A stretch of DNA of 64,000 nt, from the IMG/VR virus record IMGVR_UViG_3300030503_000287, one strand, 5' to 3'. This DNA comes from a virus. A program made the translations under genes and the position numbers. Each line of letters begins with the position of its first letter. Position 1 is the stretch's first letter. Below, in pieces: positions 34,541 through 45,061 of this stretch. Below the pieces are notes generated by a model. That model was not told the DNA's origin, made no database searches, and worked only from the letters and a program-made list of their open reading frames with translations.

Positions 34541-36440
34541 ATATTGAATCTAGATGTGCCAACACCACCTTTATATCCCATGGATTGATTGTTGATGGCA
34601 TAGTCTTAGAACATTCATTTGGGTATCTTTTACGGTTCTGGCCCCAACCTGTGAAGTTACCACTTTTACTTTCACGATTCTTCAAAGCAATAGCTTGATG
34701 TTCAGTTGGTGAGGCATGAGGGGGGTTGTTTGCCAATAACCCATCATTTAACCCTAAATCCTTTTCATAACTTCGCGAACCATCGTGACCGAGAACTGAG
34801 ACTCTGGCACATCGGCCAGCAGAGACAGATATGAGAGATTCTAATGAACGCAATTCATATCCCCATTCATCAGTGAGGATTCCGCAGTACATCATAGTCT
34901 CAACTTCTTCGTCACTGATATAAGGTAAGTGCCAGTTATGAGTTTCTATTTTCTTTGGAATCGATTCATCATATGCTTCCATTGCAAGAAAAGAAGGTAG
35001 TTGTATTTCAGGTTGAGCCAATTCATGACATCGCAGCGTAAAATAATTCTGCCAATCTGTGGCAGTCGCAATTATGGTTTGCCATGCAAATGGCTCTATA
35101 AGACGATTTGCAATGGACTTGTGGACGTTCAAATCTTTTGATAGGTAATTTGCAGCAAGCACCATTTGATCTCTGGCGTTTAACCATGCTCTAATTGCTA
35201 AACGTTCATCTTCAACACTTAATGGTTCTCCACCCTGCATACCTTTTTTGTTAGTCGCCCACACAAGAGGGATAAAAGGAGTTTCCATTACCTGTTTAAT
35301 TTTACGTTCAACAGGAATAGCACGACTGGATGCACTGTTCCTACTATTATGAACTACAATACCATTCGCGAAAAAGTTTGGAAATTCTCCGGCAATTTCA
35401 AGATCATATGTGTCTTCAACTCCACGATAATTGATTGAATCAACTGTTATGAAGTCAACATAATATTCAAATCCTGTTTGCCAACCTTGAACTTCGTGCT
35501 CTTTTCTATGGCAACCTTCACAAAGTAGGGTAACATTGTTTTTGTCGGCTACCAAATCAGGTCGTAAATAACGTGGTTGAATATGATGAATGCGCAGTTG
35601 ATCAACAGATCCACATTTCTGACAACAACCCATTTCAGCTATAAGTTGAAGCTTGGCTTTTCTGTTCCACATAATATAACTATGTTGTTCTGCTCTTGTA
35701 AAACGATGAAGTTTTTCTGTTTCTGGTTTTCCCAATCGTCGCACGGCTATTCTGGTAGTGCCTGGAATAATATTCTCGATTGTAACATAACCAGTATCTG
35801 TCCAAATTTTATGATCTTTACTTCCGGCTATTTGGTGTCTTCCGGCCTTTACTTCAAAAATTTCTTTACGACCTGAATAGAAACAATCAACAACAGTTGA
35901 ATATTGTATTTTGTTTGTATGTTCATTGATCTGTCGGATCGTCATGTCTTTGAGTCGATATTGAATTGGTTGGTTATTAACTCGTGGACGCTCGTAAAAC
36001 TTCTTAAAATCAGACCCCAACACCAGCCATTGCCGACCATCCAATTCTTTCACGGCTTTTAACAAACCAGATCTACAAGATCCATTTAGTCCAGAATAAT
36101 TGCTGAACCCAAATATGTTTTTGAGTTCCATTGTAGTATAAACACTATTATCATCCAATAACGACATATCGAGTATTTTATGGTTTTTTGACGGTCTTGG
36201 CTGTGCTCCTTCAGTCCATTTACGATAGAAATTCTCGATTGAGATAGGATACTTGGTGGCACTACTTTCACGTTTTTGCGCTCTTGGGCTACTGAATTCT
36301 AATATAGAATCTCCAGCGAGACAAAGAGATCTGTGTGTGTTAAATTCACATAATACAATACGAGGTATTACGAATTCAAAGGTAGTGATCCGTGCTCCTG
36401 CTGATGATATAGAATCCCTGATTATTTTTGCTGAATACAT
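34521..36440 (-). CDS. thyX: flavin-dependent thymidylate synthase (ThyX-like) interrupted by an intein
   Basis: Exteins join to EFNTHRSL|SRNSASSRAIPVERK (ThyX RHR...S....S.R motif). The C-terminal half is collinear with ThyX. Confidence 0.8.
   Translation of the reverse strand: MYSAKIIRDSISSAGARITTFEFVIPRIVLCEFNTHRSLCLAGDSILEFSSPRAQKRESSATKYPISIENFYRKWTEGAQPRPSKNHKILDMSLLDDNSVYTTMELKNIFGFSNYSGLNGSCRSGLLKAVKELDGRQWLVLGSDFKKFYERPRVNNQPIQYRLKDMTIRQINEHTNKIQYSTVVDCFYSGRKEIFEVKAGRHQIAGSKDHKIWTDTGYVTIENIIPGTTRIAVRRLGKPETEKLHRFTRAEQHSYIMWNRKAKLQLIAEMGCCQKCGSVDQLRIHHIQPRYLRPDLVADKNNVTLLCEGCHRKEHEVQGWQTGFEYYVDFITVDSINYRGVEDTYDLEIAGEFPNFFANGIVVHNSRNSASSRAIPVERKIKQVMETPFIPLVWATNKKGMQGGEPLSVEDERLAIRAWLNARDQMVLAANYLSKDLNVHKSIANRLIEPFAWQTIIATATDWQNYFTLRCHELAQPEIQLPSFLAMEAYDESIPKKIETHNWHLPYISDEEVETMMYCGILTDEWGYELRSLESLISVSAGRCARVSVLGHDGSRSYEKDLGLNDGLLANNPPHASPTEHQAIALKNRESKSGNFTGWGQNRKRYPNECSKTMPSTINPWDIKVVLAHLDSIYETQNV
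35346..36323 (-). mobile_element. intein with HNH homing-endonuclease domain (326 aa)
   Basis: Starts CLAGDSILEF. Internal CCQKCGSVDQLRIHHIQ ... NNVTLLCEGCHRKEH. Ends TYDLEIAGEFPNFFANGIVVHN with +1 Ser. Confidence 0.8.
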
Positions 36441-36462
36441 ATACGTACTTTCTTATAAAATT

Positions 36463-36550
36463 TGGACCGCAACCAAGGATTCGAACCTGGATCAAACCCC
36501 AATCTCCTTCACCATACGCGCGTACAGTGAGACCAACTGTGCTTGAACTA
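36463..36550 (-). ncRNA. tRNA-like 3' fragment (T-arm and acceptor-CCA mimic)
   Basis: Minus strand ends ...CCAGGUUCGAAUCCUUGGUUGCGGUCCA. The T-stem carries a mismatch or bulge. I could find no convincing 5' acceptor partner or anticodon arm. Confidence 0.3.
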
Positions 36551-36693
36551 CGACTACCGGAATCGCACCCCATTAACCATTATGGGTATTACGGTCACAT
36601 TGTGTTTAAAATTTCAGGCCGTCGTTCCCAAATACTCTATCACCCCGAAAGGAGACAGCCGCTAAAGCAGTATCCAAGCTATATCCCGAAATT

Positions 36694-37055
36694 TGGTGGA
36701 GGCGGGGAGAGTCGAACTCCCGTCTTCAGTACCCATATCTCAATATATCCTACAAGCATAGTTCGTATTTATAATGTTAGATTTTCTACGAACAAACCAT
36801 CTAACAAGTTTGAATCTATTTTCCTAGCATCCAAGATTCTGAGTGATGCTTAATCAAAGAAACGTAAGGTTTCAATCCCCACTACTTCCGAAGAAGTAGT
36901 GCAATCAGACTTAGGCGGCTGCAGCGAAAGCGACAGGGCGAACGGTCTTAAAGGTTGTGTTTGCGTTTGTTTTTAGGTCGGATTCGTATACTGGCCAACG
37001 ACCATCCAGTGCTTGCTTATTGAGTATCCTGATCTGAATCGATACCTATCGCCCC
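36694..37055 (-). ncRNA. ssrA: tmRNA (one-piece)
   Basis: 5' GGGGGCG pairs with 3' CGCCUCC-A-CCA, including G3:U70. T-arm GGGAG-UUCGACU-CUCCC. Tag ORF from GCA 36964 encodes ANTTFKTVRPVAFAAAA-TAA. Confidence 0.9.
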
Positions 37056-37064
37056 CGTATCTTT

Positions 37065-37358
37065 TTACCGTTCTATCAACTTCTTTATACTCTCAATATT
37101 TGGACCGGTAAGAGAATAAATATTTTTTGAGCCAGTGCGTTCACAATCGACAAGTTTGGCCTGTTTGAGAATACGCAAGTGACCAGAAACAGCGCCTTGC
37201 GCCATATCGAGTGAAGTAGTTATATCATTAACAGACTTTGAATTTTCTGATAATAGAGCTACGATACGAAGCCTTACCGGATGTGCAAGTGCAGAACATA
37301 TGTCTGCAAGATAATTTATTGTCTGATTGTCCATGTTTATTACCCTATATCTTTTCAA
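37065..37358 (-). CDS. ArsR-family transcriptional regulator
   Basis: LADICSALAHPVRLRIVALL ... AVSGHLRILKQAKLV wHTH signature. Confidence 0.75.
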   Translation of the reverse strand: MKRYRVINMDNQTINYLADICSALAHPVRLRIVALLSENSKSVNDITTSLDMAQGAVSGHLRILKQAKLVDCERTGSKNIYSLTGPNIESIKKLIER

Positions 37359-37548
37359 AATCTACATACTGATGAATTTCGTGAGTTGGTTTTGCCCAGG
37401 TTGCCGTAAATATTTCTTTGGCCCCAGATTCGAATTGAACTATAGCTTGTGTAAGGTTTCTGGTAACTATTAATTCTGTCACAATTCCATCGCCATAAAC
37501 ACTAACATGAACTCGTAGGCCAACTCGCACCTCCGCAACTTTCAACAT
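37345..37548 (-). CDS. hypothetical protein
   Basis: 67-aa ORF upstream of the ArsR gene. Confidence 0.45.
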   Translation of the reverse strand: MLKVAEVRVGLRVHVSVYGDGIVTELIVTRNLTQAIVQFESGAKEIFTATWAKPTHEIHQYVDFEKI

Positions 37549-37569
37549 AATTTTATCCTAATAAAATAT

Positions 37570-37655
37570 TGGTGCCAAAGACGAGACTTGAACTCGTAAG
37601 ACCTTTTGGGTCGGAAGGGTTTGAGCCCTCTGTGTTTACATTTCACCACTCTGGC
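37570..37655 (-). tRNA. tRNA-Leu (CAA), class II
   Basis: 86 nt. Acceptor GCCAGAG/CUUUGGC. Anticodon arm GAGGG-CUCAAAC-CCUUC. Variable-arm hairpin GACC-CAAAA-GGUC. T-arm ACGAG-UUCAAGU-CUCGU. CCA encoded. The D-loop lacks GG. Confidence 0.75.
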
Positions 37656-37780
37656 GTTAAATCTTACCCAAAAGAGAAATAGGGTGGAAAAGTTTATAAA
37701 TCTTGGACCAATTCCTATTTCTCTCCCGGTTCGCTGCAGCAAGGGAGATTTTATTTTTAGGTTACACCCTAATTAACCTA

Positions 37781-37856
37781 TGGTGTCAGCGGTAGGAATC
37801 GAACCTACGATTACCTGATTTTGTCAAGATGTCCTATCCAATTAGACTACACTGGC
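37781..37856 (-). tRNA. tRNA-like gene with non-canonical anticodon loop (ACAAAAU)
   Basis: 76-nt cloverleaf with CCA. T-arm GUAGG-UUCGAUU-CCUAC and a GG-containing D-loop. The anticodon loop has A32, C33 and A34-A36, with a U:U pair at the top of the stem. Confidence 0.55.
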
Positions 37857-37981
37857 ATAAAATGGCTGTCTATTCCAGCCTGTCAACGACCTGTTATCAT
37901 TATTGCGGCTATATTCGGTCGCTGAACATAACCGCTATTAACTCCATACCGTCTTATAGTTCAACATTTTAAAACCTCATT

Positions 37982-38058
37982 TGGCGGGCTGTGTTGGTTT
38001 CGAACCAACTTCTGCCGGTTTTGGAGACCGGAATGCTAACCCCATGCACCAACTACCC
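37982..38058 (-). tRNA. tRNA-Trp (CCA)
   Basis: 77 nt. Anticodon arm CCGGU-CUCCAAA-ACCGG. T-arm GUUGG-UUCGAAA-CCAAC. Discriminator G and CCA encoded. One A:A mismatch in the acceptor stem. Confidence 0.85.
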
Positions 38059-38195
38059 ACAATTCTATATTTTTAAATTCCTAAGCTGTTCGATCCAACA
38101 TTTAACTCTTTCCAATGAAGAGCACTTAGGAAGTTTCCGGGTCATGGCAAAGAGGTTCCCGGTTAGGTGCCTCTTCGCTCTCCGAAATTTTTTCT

Positions 38196-38263
38196 ATGGA
38201 ACGAAAGGAATCGAACCTTCACTACCTGCATGCTGGGTGTGCTCCCAACTACACTACACCCCA
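38196..38263 (-). ncRNA. degenerate tRNA-like gene with truncated anticodon arm
   Basis: 68 nt. Acceptor UGGGGUG/CGUUCCA (three G:U pairs). D-arm GUGU-AGUUGGGA-GCAC. T-arm GAAGG-UUCGAUU-CCUUU. Only 17 nt (CCCAGCAUGCAGGUAGU) where the anticodon arm plus variable loop should be. Confidence 0.4.
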
Positions 38264-38266
38264 TAG

Positions 38267-38731
38267 AAATTGTTTCCTCTGATATACATACCGGATTGTC
38301 TGCGCAGAGGTTTTCACCATGCTTTGTTTTAGTAAAACCGGTCTACAACTAAAACCTGTTCTATCAGAGAAATCCTCAAATCTTACAGGGTGCCGAATTC
38401 TTAATCCCAACACCCTGTTCTGTGTTTCGCTGTCACCAGCACACATATCTTCAAATCTGAGGGCTGCCAACCTATTCTCATTCTTTACAACGCTTTTCGC
38501 GTGACTCACTATGAGTCGGAAACAGGAACCATTACGGCAGCGCCAGTTCTGTTGCGCTCGATGTCACCGCAGCTCACGAGTCTTACCTGTTCCCACAGAC
38601 AACATATAGAGCTACTGGTAAGCGCCCAGTCGGCAAACATAAACGCTCACCAGTAGTTATTGCGCTTCATTAGAATGAAGCTAGCTATCTATGTCTTGGA
38701 AAAGAGGCTTTTCAAGCATAGACAACATATT
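38267..38731 (-). ncRNA. candidate structured non-coding RNA, class unknown
   Basis: About 465 nt without a convincing ORF, inside the tRNA island. Several 6-13-bp helices. Two helices need G:U pairs that exist only in the minus-strand transcript. Confidence 0.4.
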
Positions 38732-38887
38732 TTAGTGTGTTTTGAACAATAACGGAACAACAATCATTATTGCTAAAATTAACACAATCCAACCAAAAGT
38801 TCTTAAACCGTATATAAATTCTTCATAACGCCATGCATCACCCCAATTATCATCATCAGCTGGTTCTTCTTCAAACTCACTGACCAT
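38732..38887 (-). CDS. small tail-anchored membrane protein (51 aa)
   Basis: ATG 38887 overlaps the end of the upstream gene. MVSEFEEEPADDDNWGDAWRYEEFIYGLRTFGWIVLILAIMIVVPLLFKTH. Below the ORF-track cutoff. Confidence 0.45.
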   Translation of the reverse strand: MVSEFEEEPADDDNWGDAWRYEEFIYGLRTFGWIVLILAIMIVVPLLFKTH

Positions 38888-39083
38888 CTTGTTTACTCTT
38901 TTTAGCGCGCCGATTTATATGCCCAATACTTGTAGCGGCCTTTGCTTCAGCGCTCGTAAAGGAATGAGCTACACCAAGTTTATGAGCAGTTACTCCACCC
39001 ATAGCTGCTATTTCCTTACGTCGTTCAGGAGACATTGCAGCAAGACCGCGTTTCTTTTTAACTTCTGTTATTTCTATTGCCAT
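38877..39083 (-). CDS. KGG-repeat (YciG-like) stress-protein homologue
   Basis: RGLAAMSPERRKEIAAMGGVTAHKLGVAHSFTSAEAKAA resembles general stress protein repeats. Confidence 0.55.
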   Translation of the reverse strand: MAIEITEVKKKRGLAAMSPERRKEIAAMGGVTAHKLGVAHSFTSAEAKAATSIGHINRRAKKSKQDGQ

Positions 39084-39104
39084 TTTTTAATCCTAAAATT
39101 TCGA

Positions 39105-39140
39105 GCAGAGGGCGAATCCCGTCAGAAAAACTCCCTCTGC
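39105..39140. other. 8-bp GC-rich hairpin with 20-nt loop
   Basis: gcagaggg ... ccctctgc, followed by TTTT on the plus strand and by UCGAAAUUUU on the minus strand. Terminator or processing site. Confidence 0.3.
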
Positions 39141-39193
39141 TTTTGATCTACCAGCACCAACTGGTTTACTTCTAAAACTACCATCGTGTAATC

Positions 39194-39300
39194 CAGGAAG
39201 CTCAGGAATCGAACCTGAAGTGTTAGTCATCAAACCTCGATCAGCGAGCAGAATTGAACTGCCTTATCTTTCTACATGGTGATGTAACGATGCTAGTTAC
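39194..39300 (-). ncRNA. tRNA-like element(s) that do not fold into one cloverleaf
   Basis: Perfect T-arm UCAGG-UUCGAUU-CCUGA (39202-39218). A second arm GGCAG-UUCAAUU-CUGCU. A 5-bp/7-nt hairpin GUAAC-UAGCAUC-GUUAC. No matching 5' acceptor strand found. Confidence 0.3.
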
Positions 39301-39551
39301 CTCGTCTCGAAGTATTAAGAAGATTTACGTTATCTCTTAACAGTGTCGTCGTCCAGGCTCAATTACTTACTTCTTTAACCATGTATTTCTTTACTGGCTC
39401 AGTTTTCCGGTGTTACCCATATCCCCATACTGATTTAATGCACCGACGGGCACCGACTACAACCATCTCTCTTCTCTTATGTATCTATTATACACCTTCT
39501 CATCAAGAATTGCAAGTCTTTTTGAACAAATTTGAGAAAAAATGTCAAAAA

Positions 39552-39734
39552 TTATCTTGTACACCACGAATCGAGACCGGGAACGAAAATTCTACTTTCC
39601 TTACCACAAACAGAACACACCCAAATATGAAGACCAGGTTCTAACTTTATCATATTGGGAGGGTTGTGTTCTCGACTCTGACATATGTATAGCTCTTTTG
39701 GCTTTTCACTTTCTTTCAATGATCTGAATGGCAT
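39552..39734 (-). CDS. zinc-ribbon protein
   Basis: 60 aa with Cys18 and CSVC. Confidence 0.45.
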   Translation of the reverse strand: MPFRSLKESEKPKELYICQSREHNPPNMIKLEPGLHIWVCSVCGKESRIFVPGLDSWCTR

Positions 39735-39736
39735 TT

Positions 39737-40078
39737 TTATTCCTTTCCTGCGTTCAACATTTCTTCGAGTATGTTTTTATTAACTACATAATTATGAGCT
39801 TTGATTGAACAAAGAGTAGTTGTGATATTGTTATAAGATAAGGCCAAACTCTCCATCGCTTGAAGAGCTTCTTTTTTAGCCTTATTAGCTCTGTATCTAT
39901 ATGGTCGTAGAAGATAGTCTAAATATGACTTCTTTTGATAAGAGACGTTCATAAGACGTGACTTCTCTTCGTAGGTGTGATTGTTATATGAGGGATATCT
40001 CAGCCATTCCTTATAAGCCGCGTCACATTCTCTTCTGGCGGCAGCTACTTCTTCAATTGTCGGAAGTACATAAGTCAT
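39737..40078 (-). CDS. hypothetical protein
   Basis: 113-aa ORF in the array. Confidence 0.5.
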   Translation of the reverse strand: MTYVLPTIEEVAAARRECDAAYKEWLRYPSYNNHTYEEKSRLMNVSYQKKSYLDYLLRPYRYRANKAKKEALQAMESLALSYNNITTTLCSIKAHNYVVNKNILEEMLNAGKE

Positions 40079-40403
40079 TCATTTTCTCCACTAAATATTT
40101 CTCACAAGATCTGCTATTACTGCGACACAGTTCCATACCTTCTATTTCATAGGCTACGTTATCTTCGACACGTACAAGTACAAGCCAGGGCTTGACATAT
40201 ATCTGACAACCTATCCCAGCGAAGCACGACCCACTATTCTTCTTCCATATCTGATATATTCCATTTTCATGACGTTTAAATATCTTACCTGAATAGTCCA
40301 CTCCTGTTGTGGTTATTACACCATCCCATTCTCGAAAAGGTTGTCTACCTTGCTGACTTGCAAATATTTTATCGTTAAACATTTTTATCCTTATCATTTC
40401 CAT
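40053..40403 (-). CDS. hypothetical protein
   Basis: 116-aa ORF in the array. Confidence 0.5.
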   Translation of the reverse strand: MEMIRIKMFNDKIFASQQGRQPFREWDGVITTTGVDYSGKIFKRHENGIYQIWKKNSGSCFAGIGCQIYVKPWLVLVRVEDNVAYEIEGMELCRSNSRSCEKYLVEKMNDLCTSDN

Positions 40404-40561
40404 TCATGGCGTATCCAATAATCCCCAATAGAGTTATGATCATGCGCTACATAAAATGCTTGTTCACATTTACAGTTCAGGCATTGTCTGATAGTTGGTT
40501 TACCTACTGCATCGAACTTAATATAGTGCCAAGAGTGTCCAAATATACAGAGCCAACTCAT
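40394..40561 (-). CDS. small Cys/His protein (55 aa)
   Basis: ATGA coupling with the upstream stop. MSWLCIFGHSWHYIKFDAVGKPTIRQCLNCKCEQAFYVAHDHNSIGDYWIRHEWK. Below the ORF-track cutoff. Confidence 0.5.
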   Translation of the reverse strand: MSWLCIFGHSWHYIKFDAVGKPTIRQCLNCKCEQAFYVAHDHNSIGDYWIRHEWK

Positions 40562-40767
40562 TTTATACTATCCTTATCACGAGCAGTTATGATATCTGTT
40601 ATCAACTGTTGATGTTGCTTCTTCAACTCTTCAATTTCATGAAAAGTCTTGATTTCGTCTTCAATGATTTTCTTCCAGTCTTTAAATCGTTTGCGATCAA
40701 ACAGTATGTAATTAACTAAAGCAACCAACAAACCTGATGCGAAACCAATCACAAATGCATTATCCAC
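40558..40767 (-). CDS. small membrane protein
   Basis: 69 aa. N-terminal hydrophobic helix, then a charged helix. Confidence 0.5.
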   Translation of the reverse strand: MDNAFVIGFASGLLVALVNYILFDRKRFKDWKKIIEDEIKTFHEIEELKKQHQQLITDIITARDKDSIK

Positions 40768-42430
40768 CGTACACTCCTACCGTATCTGGACTCAATCGAG
40801 TCGCCAAGTCTTCATGTGCTGAAAGCGCATCATAGATTTTTTCATCAATAGTATTACGCGCAATTAGATCAATATAATGTACAGGTTGCTCCCTCCCTAT
40901 TCTGTGACTTCTATCCTGCGACTGAGAGCGCAACAAATAGCGCCAGGAGTTTGAGTGGTAGATATGGAAATCTCCGGTTTGAAGATTAGCCCCAAATGCC
41001 ATCTTCTGTATCTGCATAGTCATTATTTGTAAACCACTACTACGGTCCAGAAACTGTTTTTTGTATTCATCTCTAGTATCGTCTTTCGTACTCCCAGTAA
41101 TAGCTACAGTACCTACTATTTCATTGAGTTCGCGCTGAAGTCTGTAAACCTCATGGTTGTATCTACACCAAATTAATACCTTAATACTTGAATCACCACG
41201 AAGTCTTTCAATAGCAAAATTGCGTATCCAGTCAATCTTGTAGGAATCAAGTTCTGTAAGTACAGGTTCGGGTTGTGCCATATCTTCCCATATAGGAGCA
41301 TGACCACCAGCAATTTGATGTAACCGGAGCCATATAATTCCTTCACCGGCCAGACTTAACTCATTCCCCAGCGCAGACTCACCTTCTACCTTTACTCGTT
41401 CGTATAACTCACGGACGCTGGGAGGAAGGTCTAATCGTACTACTTCAAATGTCTGAGGCGGCAAACCAAGACATGTGGCTTTTGTAGCCCTATACCACTT
41501 AGGGCCGAGACGTGTAATAAGTCCGACAGGATCTATACATCCAACAGGTTTTAAGATAGTTTTATTGCTTAGAATTCGCTGGGGAACCATGTTTGCATAG
41601 CGATGTAAAAATTCATCATATGTCTCAGTAATATTCTCTGGGTCCACTATTTTCATCTGAGAATAAAGATTGCCTACGTTCTGGCTCATTGAAGTACCAG
41701 TTAGTTCAATCCGAATTCGTGGTGGACGAGCCAGTAAATGTGCAGCACGTGTCACTCTTGCGGACGTATTGAATAGATACCATGATTCATCAAAAGCCAC
41801 TACTTGAGGATCAAATCGTTCTAAGTATGGCCCCATCTTGGCGACTACTTCATAGTTGACAAAGACGATACCTTCCGTTGCTCGCTCCAACATTTTAATT
41901 CTAGTAGCAACAGGCTTGTTGATCGCAAGATTAGTAATATTAAGGTCATAGTTCTGTAATCGACCAATTTCCGCAATCCATTCCCCAGCGAGAGAACGAG
42001 GTAGTACCACCAATATGCGCTGTGCATTCCATACTTTGAAGAGAACTAGGGTAGATCTTGTCTTACCCGTACCCTGTTGTGATCCATTGAACTGGGATGT
42101 ATCGAGAGCAGCTAATGAACAAGATTCAAGTTGGTGAGGGAGAAGGTTCGCACCTAAGTAATCACTCCATTGCTTCACATATTCGACAGTATGAGGATCT
42201 CCTTGCATGAGACTGGAACGTACCTGCCTGTAAGCTGGTGTAGCATCATCTGGAATTGCAATAGATTCAGCAGCAAGTAATAATATACGGCTTGGTTTAA
42301 ATATCACAAATGGCGCATAAAAAGGACCTCCGCTCCGAGAATCCGAAATTTTACGGAGGTCTTTCAGTATCTTTTCATCGCCATGTGCTATCACGACATC
42401 AAGGCTTTGGTTGTAGTCTAAGGTATACAA
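40760..42430 (-). CDS. SNF2-family helicase
   Basis: GSQQGTGKTRS (motif I), VAFDESWYLFN (motif II), QSQDRSHRIGR (motif VI). Confidence 0.85.
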   Translation of the reverse strand: MYTLDYNQSLDVVIAHGDEKILKDLRKISDSRSGGPFYAPFVIFKPSRILLLAAESIAIPDDATPAYRQVRSSLMQGDPHTVEYVKQWSDYLGANLLPHQLESCSLAALDTSQFNGSQQGTGKTRSTLVLFKVWNAQRILVVLPRSLAGEWIAEIGRLQNYDLNITNLAINKPVATRIKMLERATEGIVFVNYEVVAKMGPYLERFDPQVVAFDESWYLFNTSARVTRAAHLLARPPRIRIELTGTSMSQNVGNLYSQMKIVDPENITETYDEFLHRYANMVPQRILSNKTILKPVGCIDPVGLITRLGPKWYRATKATCLGLPPQTFEVVRLDLPPSVRELYERVKVEGESALGNELSLAGEGIIWLRLHQIAGGHAPIWEDMAQPEPVLTELDSYKIDWIRNFAIERLRGDSSIKVLIWCRYNHEVYRLQRELNEIVGTVAITGSTKDDTRDEYKKQFLDRSSGLQIMTMQIQKMAFGANLQTGDFHIYHSNSWRYLLRSQSQDRSHRIGREQPVHYIDLIARNTIDEKIYDALSAHEDLATRLSPDTVGVYGG

Positions 42431-42630
42431 GAGTTCTGTTTCTCAAGTGCCATTTCATAATTCAATATGAGTTTATTTATAACAGGTTTGTTGTACCCAA
42501 TTGCGCTTACTGTATTCACAACGGCACGTGCCAAATCAAGAGGTGGTGTTAACTCACCGTGTTTTCTGGTCCATTGATTCATTAAGTATCGAATTGCTAA
42601 AGTAGATGGATCTACCCCGTAGTCGCTCAT
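42418..42630 (-). CDS. hypothetical protein
   Basis: 70 aa. The ATG is directly preceded by TAA in its own frame. Confidence 0.5.
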   Translation of the reverse strand: MSDYGVDPSTLAIRYLMNQWTRKHGELTPPLDLARAVVNTVSAIGYNKPVINKLILNYEMALEKQNSCIP

Positions 42631-42769
42631 TTATCGCTCCGAGATATTTCTGATATCCTGACTCTAAAGCTTCATTCCACTCATGTCTCTGACGTAACAA
42701 CCTTCTAATCTCAGGAGTGATTCTACGCTCAAGACATTGTTGAATAAGTTTATGTTGAGTATCTTGCAT
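42554..42769 (-). CDS. hypothetical protein, 3' end uncertain
   Basis: 71-aa ORF whose last 25 codons overlap the next gene. Confidence 0.45.
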   Translation of the reverse strand: MQDTQHKLIQQCLERRITPEIRRLLRQRHEWNEALESGYQKYLGAINERLRGRSIYFSNSILNESMDQKTR

Positions 42770-43110
42770 TATTTACTCATGTCGTCTAACGAATCCCGAT
42801 ACATGTTCTCGTAATGATCCGACTCTACCTTGTCATTCAATCTTTCAAGACGATCAATCTCAGCAACAATTAAAGCACCAGCTTTTTCAAGGTCACGAAT
42901 AGGGTTTGAGAACTTATCGATCCAATCAGGAGACCAACCCTCTGGCCATAAATGATCAATCAAATTCATGTCTTTGGTATGTTTTAATATATAACATACT
43001 GCAGCTTGAACCATCTCCCCATTAGTATATTGGTCATCCCGTTTAGAGTCAAAACCTTCTACCTTGATCTGTCTATTACGTTCCGCTTCTATTCTGCGTA
43101 TACCTGACAT
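42769..43110 (-). CDS. hypothetical protein
   Basis: 113-aa ORF. All-helical-looking, with WPEGWSPDW motif. Confidence 0.5.
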   Translation of the reverse strand: MSGIRRIEAERNRQIKVEGFDSKRDDQYTNGEMVQAAVCYILKHTKDMNLIDHLWPEGWSPDWIDKFSNPIRDLEKAGALIVAEIDRLERLNDKVESDHYENMYRDSLDDMSK

Positions 43111-43115
43111 ATGAT

Positions 43116-43301
43116 TTATCTTTCTCTCGATGCAGGAGTTTTGGCGGAAGGTTGAATCTCATAGAAAAACACATCCGAAATTCTTGGTATATTATCATTC
43201 CAAGTCTCAGATGAAATTGTTGCTTCTTCTATGGTTAAAATATCATTTTCAACAATTTCATCTTCTAAATTCAAGTTTAGAGCTACAATCATAAATGTCA
43301 T
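43116..43301 (-). CDS. hypothetical acidic protein
   Basis: 61-aa ORF. Confidence 0.4.
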   Translation of the reverse strand: MTFMIVALNLNLEDEIVENDILTIEEATISSETWNDNIPRISDVFFYEIQPSAKTPASRER

Positions 43302-43302
43302 A

Positions 43303-43377
43303 TGGGTCCCTCGGCTGGATTCGGACCAGCATTAGCGCCTTCAAAGGGCGTTTTCCTGCCAATTAAAAGACAAGGGA
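43303..43377 (-). tRNA. tRNA-Gln (UUG) with atypical T-loop
   Basis: 75 nt. Acceptor UCCCUUG/CGAGGGA. Anticodon arm ACGCC-CUUUGAA-GGCGC. T-arm GCUGG-UCCGAAU-CCAGC (C at position 55). CCA encoded. Confidence 0.6.
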
Positions 43378-43381
43378 TCAA

Positions 43382-43636
43382 TTAAGATCCCTGTTGGACA
43401 GTCTTCTTCACTCGCGGAAATGGTTTGCGCTTTGTATATTCAAAGTTTCCAGCAGTTATGTATTGATGAAATTCTTCTGAGGACACAAGATATTCCTTAC
43501 CAATTTTCTGGCCATGAAGCTTGCCGTCACGAACCAACTTCACAATATGATGACGCGGAACACCAAGTTTCTCAGCTATCTTCTCAACGCTGAGATATTC
43601 TTGCTCCCCAATCACAACTGTTTCTTGCTCTGCCAT
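43382..43636 (-). CDS. excisionase/MerR-type HTH DNA-binding protein
   Basis: Start moved to ATG 43636 (AGGAG RBS; the promoter lies in the longer ORF). LSVEKIAEKLGVPRHHIVKLVRDGKLHGQKIGKEYLV. Confidence 0.6.
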   Translation of the reverse strand: MAEQETVVIGEQEYLSVEKIAEKLGVPRHHIVKLVRDGKLHGQKIGKEYLVSSEEFHQYITAGNFEYTKRKPFPRVKKTVQQGS

Positions 43637-43671
43637 GCTTACTCCTAAATTATTGTAGTACTTTCCTTTAT

Positions 43672-43700
43672 AGTATAGCACAATTTTTCATATTTTGCAA
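43672..43700 (-). promoter_or_regulatory. sigma70-type promoter
   Basis: Minus strand reads TTGCAA, 17 nt, TGcTATACT. Confidence 0.6.
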
Positions 43701-43719
43701 TAGTGGTAAAGGAAAGATA

Positions 43720-43944
43720 TTATAATAAGTGTGATTCCAAATCTTTCTTATCTAAGGTCCAATATATTCGGAACCATATTTCTCTACCGCATACCCCTTC
43801 GAGTTGTTGAATTATCCATATAGACTGTAACCAAACCGTAACATATCTATCTCCATTATTCGAAGAAAGAATTATTGGTTTCCATGCGAATATACGACGT
43901 ACTCGTTTATCGCCAATGTTTGTAGGTTTATGGTCCCAGTGCAT
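43720..43944 (-). CDS. hypothetical protein
   Basis: 74-aa ORF. Confidence 0.45.
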   Translation of the reverse strand: MHWDHKPTNIGDKRVRRIFAWKPIILSSNNGDRYVTVWLQSIWIIQQLEGVCGREIWFRIYWTLDKKDLESHLL

Positions 43945-43993
43945 TATTTATCCAACTCTTCCAGGTATTTACGAACGGCCCTGTAAATTTTTA

Positions 43994-45061
43994 TCATGAT
44001 TTCTTCAACTCCTTCAAGAATTCAAGCGCACGGTCAATCATCGAAGGTTCGGACCAATTTGACAAACGCTGCTCTAGAAGGGCATTATACATAGGCAACA
44101 CGAATGGGTTACCAATTATTTCCTTTAATCGCTCAAACAACCCGATCATAGAACCCACAAACAAGATTTGGCCAGCGTCAAGGTGTGCAGATAGTTTTGA
44201 ACTTCTCTCGTCTCTCAATTCGTTCGAAAGAGTATTCAACTGAATCTTTAAACTCTCATTCTGTGTTCGGTACTGATCGGCTTCAGGCGCAACAGAGAGA
44301 AGTTCTAGAAAATCATTTGAAAGACGCTCGACATTAGAGACAGGCTTTCTATCGTCTTTGACTTCAATGACTGAAACTACAGATTCTGTTTCCTCTATTA
44401 ATTTTTTGTCTATAGAGACCTCCCCAATACATTTTGGTTTTACTATAATATCCCCATCCTTACTCCAGTTTGCGTCCTTAACTGGTTCTTTGTGCCTCAA
44501 ATAGTCCTGCTCTTCTTTCGATAGTGTAGTCATATCGATACCAACACTGCTAATAATAGCATCTGATGTTTTTGTATTCACAAAGAAATTCCTTGTTCTA
44601 TCTGTCGTTTTAACCACATCATCCCTCAGCGCTTCTACAAGACCCTTCTTGATAAGACGTGACATAGAAGCAGACACAGAATGAATTGATATATTTACAT
44701 CATCAGATACTGTTTTATAATCGGCATGAACTTTTGTGTTCGCTGTCTCATTTGCCATACGCCAGACATAAGAAAGTACTAGACGATCAATCTCTACATT
44801 TTCAACAGTTCCGTATTTCATTTTTGTTAGACGTTCTAGGGTTTGTAGTTCTGTGACAGTAATACCTAGAGCACAAGCAATTTTCTGCCTCTCTTCGTTG
44901 GTTGAAAAACGTTTGGCATGTTCGTAGTCGCTGACATCGTAAAATTTCCAAACACCAATTATCTCAGCTAGTTGTGGTTGAGATATTCCTTTCTCCCAGC
45001 GTACATCACCTATTGGAGTATTGGGCTTTCTTTTTGATACTGTCGTTGCTTTTGTGTTCAT
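43994..45061 (-). CDS. putative transcriptional regulator (XRE-like HTH plus wHTH)
   Basis: GISQPQLAEIIGV near the N-terminus. SIHSVSASMSRLIKKGLVEAL as a second HTH. Coiled-coil C-terminus. Confidence 0.55.
   Translation of the reverse strand: MNTKATTVSKRKPNTPIGDVRWEKGISQPQLAEIIGVWKFYDVSDYEHAKRFSTNEERQKIACALGITVTELQTLERLTKMKYGTVENVEIDRLVLSYVWRMANETANTKVHADYKTVSDDVNISIHSVSASMSRLIKKGLVEALRDDVVKTTDRTRNFFVNTKTSDAIISSVGIDMTTLSKEEQDYLRHKEPVKDANWSKDGDIIVKPKCIGEVSIDKKLIEETESVVSVIEVKDDRKPVSNVERLSNDFLELLSVAPEADQYRTQNESLKIQLNTLSNELRDERSSKLSAHLDAGQILFVGSMIGLFERLKEIIGNPFVLPMYNALLEQRLSNWSEPSMIDRALEFLKELKKS

Follow-up and report, generated by a model that had tools for sequence, protein, structure and literature searches.

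At positions 37781-37856 on the minus strand of the window, by which we mean the whole 64,000-nt stretch of viral DNA that was analysed, lies a 76-nt gene that resembles a tRNA in all but its anticodon arm, and the question that it raises is whether the RNA decodes at all or has been kept for some other purpose. The gene is detected by ARAGORN, by the Rfam model RF00005 and by direct parsing of the sequence, and the parse bears out the original prediction of an encoded CCA, a good T-arm, a GG-containing D-loop and an acceptor stem with a single C:A mismatch. The 5' strand of the acceptor stem (GCCAGUG, 37850-37856) pairs with CGCUGAC (37785-37791) at every position except C2.A71, and the latter strand together with discriminator A73 and the encoded CCA spans 37781-37791. 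The D-arm, GUCU-AAUUGGAUA-GGAC (37831-37847), contains G18 G19, the T-arm reads GUAGG-UUCGAUU-CCUAC (37792-37808), and the variable region is a 4-nt AAUC. The tertiary nucleotides U8, A14, G18G19, A21, G53-C61 and T54-A58 are all intact, as is the CCA end. The RF00005 score is 42.2 bits (E 1.8e-6; gathering score 29), as compared to 44.9-47 bits for the phage's own three canonical tRNAs, which encode CCA as well. The ARAGORN run that had been proposed as a check placed the gene boundaries exactly at 37781-37856 and called the gene tRNA-Phe(aaa). The anticodon arm, originally read as UCUUG-ACAAAAU-CAGGU with A32, C33 and AAA at positions 34-36, gives the same reading on the minus strand; position 33 is C, not U, position 37 is A, a purine, and of the Phe identity bases A35, A36 and A73 are found but not G34. 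Two mismatches are carried in total, C2.A71 in the acceptor stem and U.U at 27:43. Two other accounts of the locus were rejected. A plus-strand gene would have the canonical-looking loop AUUUUGU; this candidate was set aside because the GG D-loop, the TTCGA T-loop and the CCA are present only on the minus strand, as are all of the neighboring genes. An attP or integration-site remnant is at odds with a complete 5' half and with the position of such genes inside contigs.

The architecture of the anticodon arm is the feature on which the interpretation turns. In the canonical register, positions 27:43 are U.U, so that the anticodon stem has four pairs only, and the window gene does not form the canonical 5-bp stem (27-31/39-43) with a 7-nt loop. 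An Infernal alignment places the stem, CUUGA/UCAGG, one step further in, with A32:U38 closed and a loop of 5 nt, and the ViennaRNA minimum free energy fold likewise favors the A32:U38-closed pentaloop (-14.8 kcal/mol for the cloverleaf with the pentaloop versus -13.5 kcal/mol with a 7-nt loop). The closure to 5 nt through an A:U pair, mentioned in the original prediction as something that the loop could do, is supported by both programs and turned out to be the key feature of the gene. The normal anticodon arm is replaced by this 5-bp helix with its A:U closure and CAAAA cap (37814-37828, as placed by Infernal, by the fold and by an alignment of seven bodies described below), and the pentaloop CAAAA itself (37819-37823) is the same in every member of the class to which the gene appears to belong.

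The name tRNA-Phe(aaa) finds little echo in the rest of the molecule. When the D-arm signature and the T-loop were scanned across the genomes of 185,579 species, 18 matches were obtained, including 16 on tRNA-Glu, one on a tRNA-Arg(CCU) whose D-arm is identical, and one on an archaeal tRNA-Gly. Since the D-arm signature falls mostly in tRNA-Glu, the window body is not Phe-like, and tRNA-Phe ranked eighth among isotypes in a small nearest-neighbor test. An AAA 'anticodon' with A34 is not known to be used by bacteria. Across 74 ORFs of the window, taken as a crude set, the UUU share of Phe codons is 62% (421 codons), a usage that neither helps nor hurts a Phe reading.

IMG/VR was then scanned for ACAAAAT located 11-14 nt before a T-loop, specified as GGTTCGANTCC in the first scan and as GGTTCAANTCC in the second. 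Most of the matches were chance occurrences, variable arms of class II tRNAs, or tmRNA ends. Six further tRNA-shaped genes from five lineages, all scoring above the Rfam threshold, carry the heptamer exactly at the anticodon-loop position, and with the window gene the class totals seven bodies in six lineages. These additional members are L182, also found as L186 and L187 (50.1 bits; 36.6 bits for L187), L183, also found as L184 and L202 (45 bits), L209 (48 bits), L219 (40 bits), L456 (47 bits), and L500 (42 bits). The window gene combines four features, namely a body that exceeds the Rfam threshold, a 5-bp helix without mismatches, an A:U-closed CAAAA loop and an open outer pair, and all four are shared by L182, L183, L209, L219, L456, and L500. 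In an alignment of the seven arms, 35 of 35 cells are paired in the pentaloop register, four of the five helix pairs vary on both sides across the class, and the closing A:U is constant. The pair 27:43 is open in all seven members versus 9.4% of 425 other tRNAs. It should be noted that the scan pattern demanded ACAAAAT and that ARAGORN selects for some stem, while neither selects for an unpaired 27:43; because the 7-mer was required by the pattern, invariance of the loop is uninformative in itself and only its recurrence counts.

Members of the class differ in how firmly their length fixes the loop. L183, L219, L456, and L500 fall 2-3 nt short of tRNA length, and in each of them a single N26 precedes the helix as usual; their short length and normal N26 leave no 7-nt loop, and they are thus true pentaloops. 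The window gene, L182, and L209 are full length, with an extra unpaired pyrimidine flanking the helix on each side. A32:U38 also occurs in some decoding tRNAs, and an open 7-nt loop is therefore physically possible in these three. The bodies of the class members are otherwise dissimilar when aligned. That of L183 is initiator-tRNA-like, with A11:U24 and a 1:72 mismatch; its nearest neighbors are all tRNA-Met and its blastn matches fall on phage tRNA-Met genes. The discriminators of the seven members are A, U, A, U, G, A, and U, and acceptor stems are imperfect in five of the seven as compared to 7.8% of 561 canonical tRNAs. The imperfect stems could reflect relaxed constraint or, equally, a design that avoids charging or EF-Tu binding. 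The differing discriminators and the often imperfect acceptor stems argue against a family that decodes Phe codons. An origin of the loop from that of tRNA-Phe or tRNA-Leu(CAA) by loss of 2 nt was also considered and rejected, given the initiator body of L183, the unrelatedness of the bodies, and the full length of three members. Cultured phages were searched for a class member and none was found; apart from a synteny shared by L182 and L500, no protein is common to the class loci; and a search of the literature for C33, pentaloop or decoy tRNA-like RNAs in phages returned nothing specific.

Two other sets of odd A-rich loops were encountered among the matches. The tRNA-shaped genes L444:10165-10246 (-) and L454:1336-1418 (+) have 8-nt loops, UUACAAAA and UGACAAAA, in which ARAGORN reads a 4-base anticodon 'acaa' and which end in CAAAA, as does the pentaloop class. 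The genes L364:6800-6873, L366:3019-3094, and L424:2003-2078 represent two unrelated bodies (47 and 51 bits) with perfect 5-bp anticodon stems and the loops CUAAACA or AUAAACA, a recurring arrangement that combines U33 and an AAA 'anticodon' with the pyrimidine C37.

Evidence that the arm can be maintained over evolutionary distance comes from L182 and L500, which derive from related phages and are followed downstream by DUF6353 (phrog_2152) genes that are 30-36% identical in amino acid sequence. By blastn, almost the only part of the two loci that aligns is a promoter-like box and the tRNA-like gene (74% over 108 nt). Within the gene, compensated changes affect three of the five pairs of the arm and several pairs of the acceptor stem, and the loop and its A:U pair are unchanged. 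In both loci the conserved promoter-like box, with TTGCA...TATTAT or TATAAT, immediately precedes the look-alike (L182:5191-5232 and L500:7527-7569), and a 31-nt piece of it is repeated before the downstream DUF6353 paralogs of L182 (6727-6757 and 8023-8053). The L182 gene is the sole tRNA-type gene in approximately 10 kb, and since a terminator is located directly 3' of it, it can be regarded as a self-standing unit. The position of this terminator also led to rejection of L182 as the leader of a longer RNA of approximately 360 nt.

Control scans bear on whether such recurrence is expected by chance. The 15 other variants of ACAANNT were scanned in a part of the collection that holds 5 of the 40 ACAAAAT loci, and in approximately 98 unique matches listed none was positioned as the loop of a tRNA-like gene, as compared to two families for ACAAAAT in that same part. 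For the composition-matched heptamer AAACAAT, which was scanned completely, the pentaloop helix was present in 0 of 74 unique matches, versus four ACAAAAT families among 34 (Fisher p ~0.009, calculated by hand); one AAACAAT match (L429) does have the heptamer as its loop, without the pentaloop helix. Further, among 612 unique ARAGORN tRNAs in 5 Mb of fetched loci, no other non-canonical pentaloop arm was found, and the only other arms of pentaloop geometry belong to three ordinary tRNAs with U32...A38 loops. We take the recurrence of the CAAAA arm to be real, on numbers that are small.

The genomic setting of the window gene is an RNA island in an uncultured phage that encodes a primase-helicase, ThyX with an HNH insert, a Sak4-like protein, and an SNF2 helicase. 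On the minus strand, the island includes a tmRNA (36694-37056) at a distance of 725 nt from the look-alike, tRNA-Leu(CAA) (37570-37655), and tRNA-Trp(CCA) (37982-38058), with a gene for an ArsR-type winged-helix regulator (HTH_5, E 2.7e-13; 37065-37358, -) between the tmRNA and tRNA-Leu. A tRNA-Gln(UUG) gene (43303-43377, -) is located further along; it has U1:A72 and a discriminator C73 before its encoded CCA, while bacterial tRNA-Gln has G73. A terminator-like hairpin with a U-run (37864-37880, -) was recognized by a consensus scan 7 nt upstream of the look-alike and also appears in the fold of the upstream spacer. The spacers between the tRNA genes (37656-37780, 37857-37981, and 38059-38195, -), which are 125-137 nt long, are more stable than shuffled sequences, with z scores of -2.1, -3.5, and -2.5, respectively. 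Degenerate tRNA remnants are also present in the island (36463-36560, 38196-38263, and about 39150-39345). The one at 38196-38263 (-; 37.2 bits in Rfam, missed by ARAGORN) has good acceptor, D- and T-arms, no encoded CCA, and, in place of an anticodon arm, a 13-nt stub, CCCAGCAUGCAGG, containing a GCAUGC palindrome. The T-arm core of the look-alike, AGGTTCGATTCCT, is shared by three further tRNA-like remnants in the island; copies of this core (on the plus strand AGGAATCGAACCT and near variants) are located at 36475-36488, 37793-37806, 38205-38218, and 39203-39216. Three of the four copies form part of aberrant tRNA-like elements, possibly paralogs.

Relatives of the phage shed limited light on the locus. 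By blastn, the island matches none of 50,697 phage records, and the exact pattern of the look-alike body is absent from IMG/VR. Among the IMG/VR, protein database and metagenome matches listed, relatives of the SNF2 helicase are at most 39% identical, and the contigs of the nearest of these lack a homolog of the look-alike; an identical helicase is recorded for 11 contigs. The comparison of the loop across related phages that had originally been suggested thus has a divided outcome, in that no close relatives were found in the collections scanned and the same arm is nevertheless present in five other lineages. No gene of the Pth, Ro60 or RNA-repair type was detected among the window ORFs that were tested.

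How, then, should the gene be understood? Decay in an eroding tRNA array, in which the original loop was lost recently and its match to the loops of other phages is an A-rich coincidence, was among the options named in the original prediction and now appears rather unlikely. Broken tRNA-like pieces with the same T-arm core do occur in the island, the window gene has the C2.A71 and U.U mismatches, its 42 bits compare to 55-73 bits for many phage tRNAs, acceptor mismatches are enriched in the class as would be expected under relaxed constraint, and distant relatives of the phage are without the gene. Against this, the phage's canonical tRNAs themselves reach only 45-47 bits, the tertiary nucleotides and the CCA end of the look-alike are intact, and the combination of the 7-mer, a shifted perfect helix and an open 27:43 recurs on unrelated bodies and was absent from the controls. 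The orthologous pair L182/L500 weighs in the same direction, its loop having been kept while proteins dropped to 30-36% identity. Decay is thus disfavored by a score like that of canonical tRNAs, by retention of the CCA, by recurrence of the arm with covarying stems and by the existence of an orthologous pair. A different possibility is that the gene specifies a processing or punctuation element, whose tRNA shape recruits RNase P and 3' enzymes to cut the island transcript, thereby releasing structured spacers or neighboring tRNAs, and whose loop has no role. The placement of the gene between structured spacers of approximately 125 nt (z -2.1 to -3.5) in a co-oriented array is what such an element would predict, yet a pure processing signal needs neither an invariant loop nor a closing pair preserved across lineages, and L182, with its stand-alone arrangement of promoter, tRNA-like gene and terminator, has nothing to release. 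This explanation is considered quite improbable.

The remaining alternative, which is unlikely in our estimation, is a working if unusual tRNA-Phe(AAA) with an open A32-C33-AAA-A37-U38 loop that reads UUU by Watson-Crick pairing, is charged by PheRS through A35, A36, and A73, and is invisible to a host anticodon nuclease owing to C33, A32, U38, and A34. This is the form in which escape from host nucleases, also put forward in the original prediction, would apply to the gene. The RNA has A73 and an encoded CCA, UUU is the abundant Phe codon in the crude ORF set (62%), and the phage's Leu-CAA and Gln-UUG tRNAs also serve A/U-rich codons. Neither C33 (27 of 612 tRNAs, mostly otherwise normal) nor A34 (in Val-AAC and Cys-ACA tRNAs of phage contigs) is without parallel. 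Further, an engineered tRNA-Phe(AAA) decodes UUU in Escherichia coli (PMC4814082), and changes in phage tRNA loops have been linked to nuclease escape (PMC10264068). The structural evidence is nevertheless difficult to accommodate, since 27:43 is open and the helix displaced one step inward in the window gene and all class members, four of which would lose N26 if the loop were 7 nt. Additionally, the D-arm and 4-nt variable region resemble those of Glu/Arg tRNAs rather than tRNA-Phe, A73 is not the discriminator of every class member, and one of the bodies resembles an initiator tRNA. According to Olejniczak and Uhlenbeck, A32:U38 reportedly weakens ribosome binding in tRNAs that have it, which would suit weak AAA:UUU pairing poorly. 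Nuclease escape by a decoding tRNA-Phe(AAA) is disfavored above all by the 5-nt loop in seven of seven members, the differing discriminators, and the initiator-like body.

We therefore lean, with some reservation, toward the reading that the window gene is a selected tRNA look-alike that does not decode. A selected tRNA mimic is probable because the same odd arm is present in five other phage lineages. We infer class membership, selection and a non-decoding state alike for the window gene, selection by way of its class membership alone given that the gene is without an orthologue. The broader proposal, that tRNA bodies with an invariant A:U-closed CAAAA pentaloop constitute a widespread and undescribed class of phage small RNAs in which the loop is a sequence-specific recognition site, is advanced more tentatively, as somewhat less likely than not. 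If the loop is a recognition site, the RNA might act as a decoy for, or an inhibitor of, a host system by which tRNAs are attacked or sensed; alternatively, it might be a kissing partner of U-rich anticodon loops, for example that of tRNA-Lys(UUU), which is a target of several anticodon nucleases. Several points speak against the preferred reading. The class consists of seven bodies from six lineages that were found with a pattern demanding the 7-mer and compared to a small control set, imperfect acceptor stems and modest Rfam scores would also be expected from decay, clearly degenerate tRNA remnants occur in the same island, and no partner protein is common to the members or was found in the window.

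If the look-alike is indeed selected and non-decoding, its mode of action can be outlined as follows. The RNA would be transcribed together with the tRNA island and would probably be excised in the manner of a tRNA, by RNase P and 3' processing. It is predicted to keep the L-shaped, processable features of a tRNA, namely a 7-bp acceptor stem, D-loop GG/T-loop pairing, a T-arm, a discriminator and CCA, while the CAAAA loop would lack the U33 turn and be too short to present three anticodon bases with a further loop base on either side. It may then act through its tRNA shape and A-rich loop, by binding or competing for a tRNA-handling factor. Our first guess is that it could be a decoy or blocker of a tRNA-targeting host defense or toxin; a competitor or decoy fits a molecule that has a tRNA shape and a CCA end and a loop unable to decode. 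Our second guess is that the loop could be where a specific partner, either protein or RNA, docks, as a sequence-specific partner is suggested by the invariance of the loop. Under either guess, the RNA would stay outside translation.

The survey of fetched loci also provided a view of how strictly position 33 is kept in other tRNAs. U33 is present in 573 of 612 unique phage and bacterial tRNAs, and C33 is present in 27, mostly as 'CC-U34' loops on otherwise normal tRNAs. One contig from a Bacillota MAG (L178:500-5220) contains 27 tRNA genes in 5 kb, all with an encoded CCA, and six of these have C33 (Met, Gly-UCC, Val-UAC, Gln-UUG, Glu-UUC, and Thr-UGU); L171:894-968 was noted alongside it, and a Val-UAC with the loop CCUACAA was observed in three separate contigs. 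In phage and array tRNAs, U33 may be less universal than is stated in textbooks. Outside of tRNA-Arg, A34 was observed in phage tRNAs from L246 (2549-2623), L263 (12161-12235), L242, L257, and L262, with the loops CUAACAA for Val(AAC) and CUACAAC, UCACAAU or CCACAAG for Cys(ACA).

The distinction between a decoding and a non-decoding gene has practical consequences, as annotation pipelines will label genes of this kind tRNA-Phe(AAA) and enter them in counts of codon compensation, which would be wrong if they do not decode. Should the class be real, phages would repeatedly have retained a tRNA-shaped RNA whose loop is of one specific, non-decoding kind, which would point to a new interaction with host machinery that handles or targets tRNAs, a field that is now central to phage defense and counter-defense. 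The invariant loop is a simple handle for pull-downs, for loop-swap mutants, and for database-wide searches.

Comparison with known systems helps to place the look-alike. With the canonical phage tRNA (RF00005) it shares the cloverleaf, the 7-bp acceptor stem, the GG D-loop, the TTCGA T-loop, a discriminator, CCA, and location in a tRNA cluster. It differs from canonical tRNA-Phe in the lack of U33, in a helix that is shifted by one pair and ends in an A:U-closed 5-nt loop, in A34 and the resulting AAA 'anticodon', and in a D-arm and variable region that are not Phe-like. Phage tRNAs that escape nucleases are closer in setting. Mycobacteriophage tRNAs with substitutions in the anticodon loop or stem evade VapC (van den Berg et al., 2023; PMC10264068), and tRNA-Tyr of T5 and others evade tRNA nucleases (Azam et al., 2024; PMC11555353). 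Such genes and the look-alike have in common a place in a cluster, an anticodon arm that departs from the host-type consensus, and a plausible role in counter-defense. On our reading of these sources, however, the escape tRNAs retain an ordinary decoding loop with its cognate anticodon and continue to decode, whereas members of the look-alike class cannot present a normal anticodon. A cognate anticodon in a decoding-competent loop is not what the window gene contains, in that AAA is non-standard in bacteria and the loop is 5 nt.

A second point of reference is provided by RNAs in which only part of a tRNA is retained. The look-alike shares with YrlA-type Y RNAs and with tmRNA (RF00023) the acceptor/T/D 'top half' of a tRNA, the replacement of the anticodon arm, and occurrence in phages. 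Bacterial and phage Y RNAs of the YrlA type, with a tRNA-like domain (RF02553), were reportedly described by Chen et al. in 2014. Unlike these, the look-alike is without a Ro60-binding stem; RF02553 had no match at E<=1 in 36000-44000, and no rsr-like or TROVE-type gene was present among the window ORFs that were tested. Unlike tmRNA, it has no mRNA-like part. In contrast to both, it carries a short hairpin where a tRNA would have its anticodon arm, and its overall length is that of a normal tRNA.
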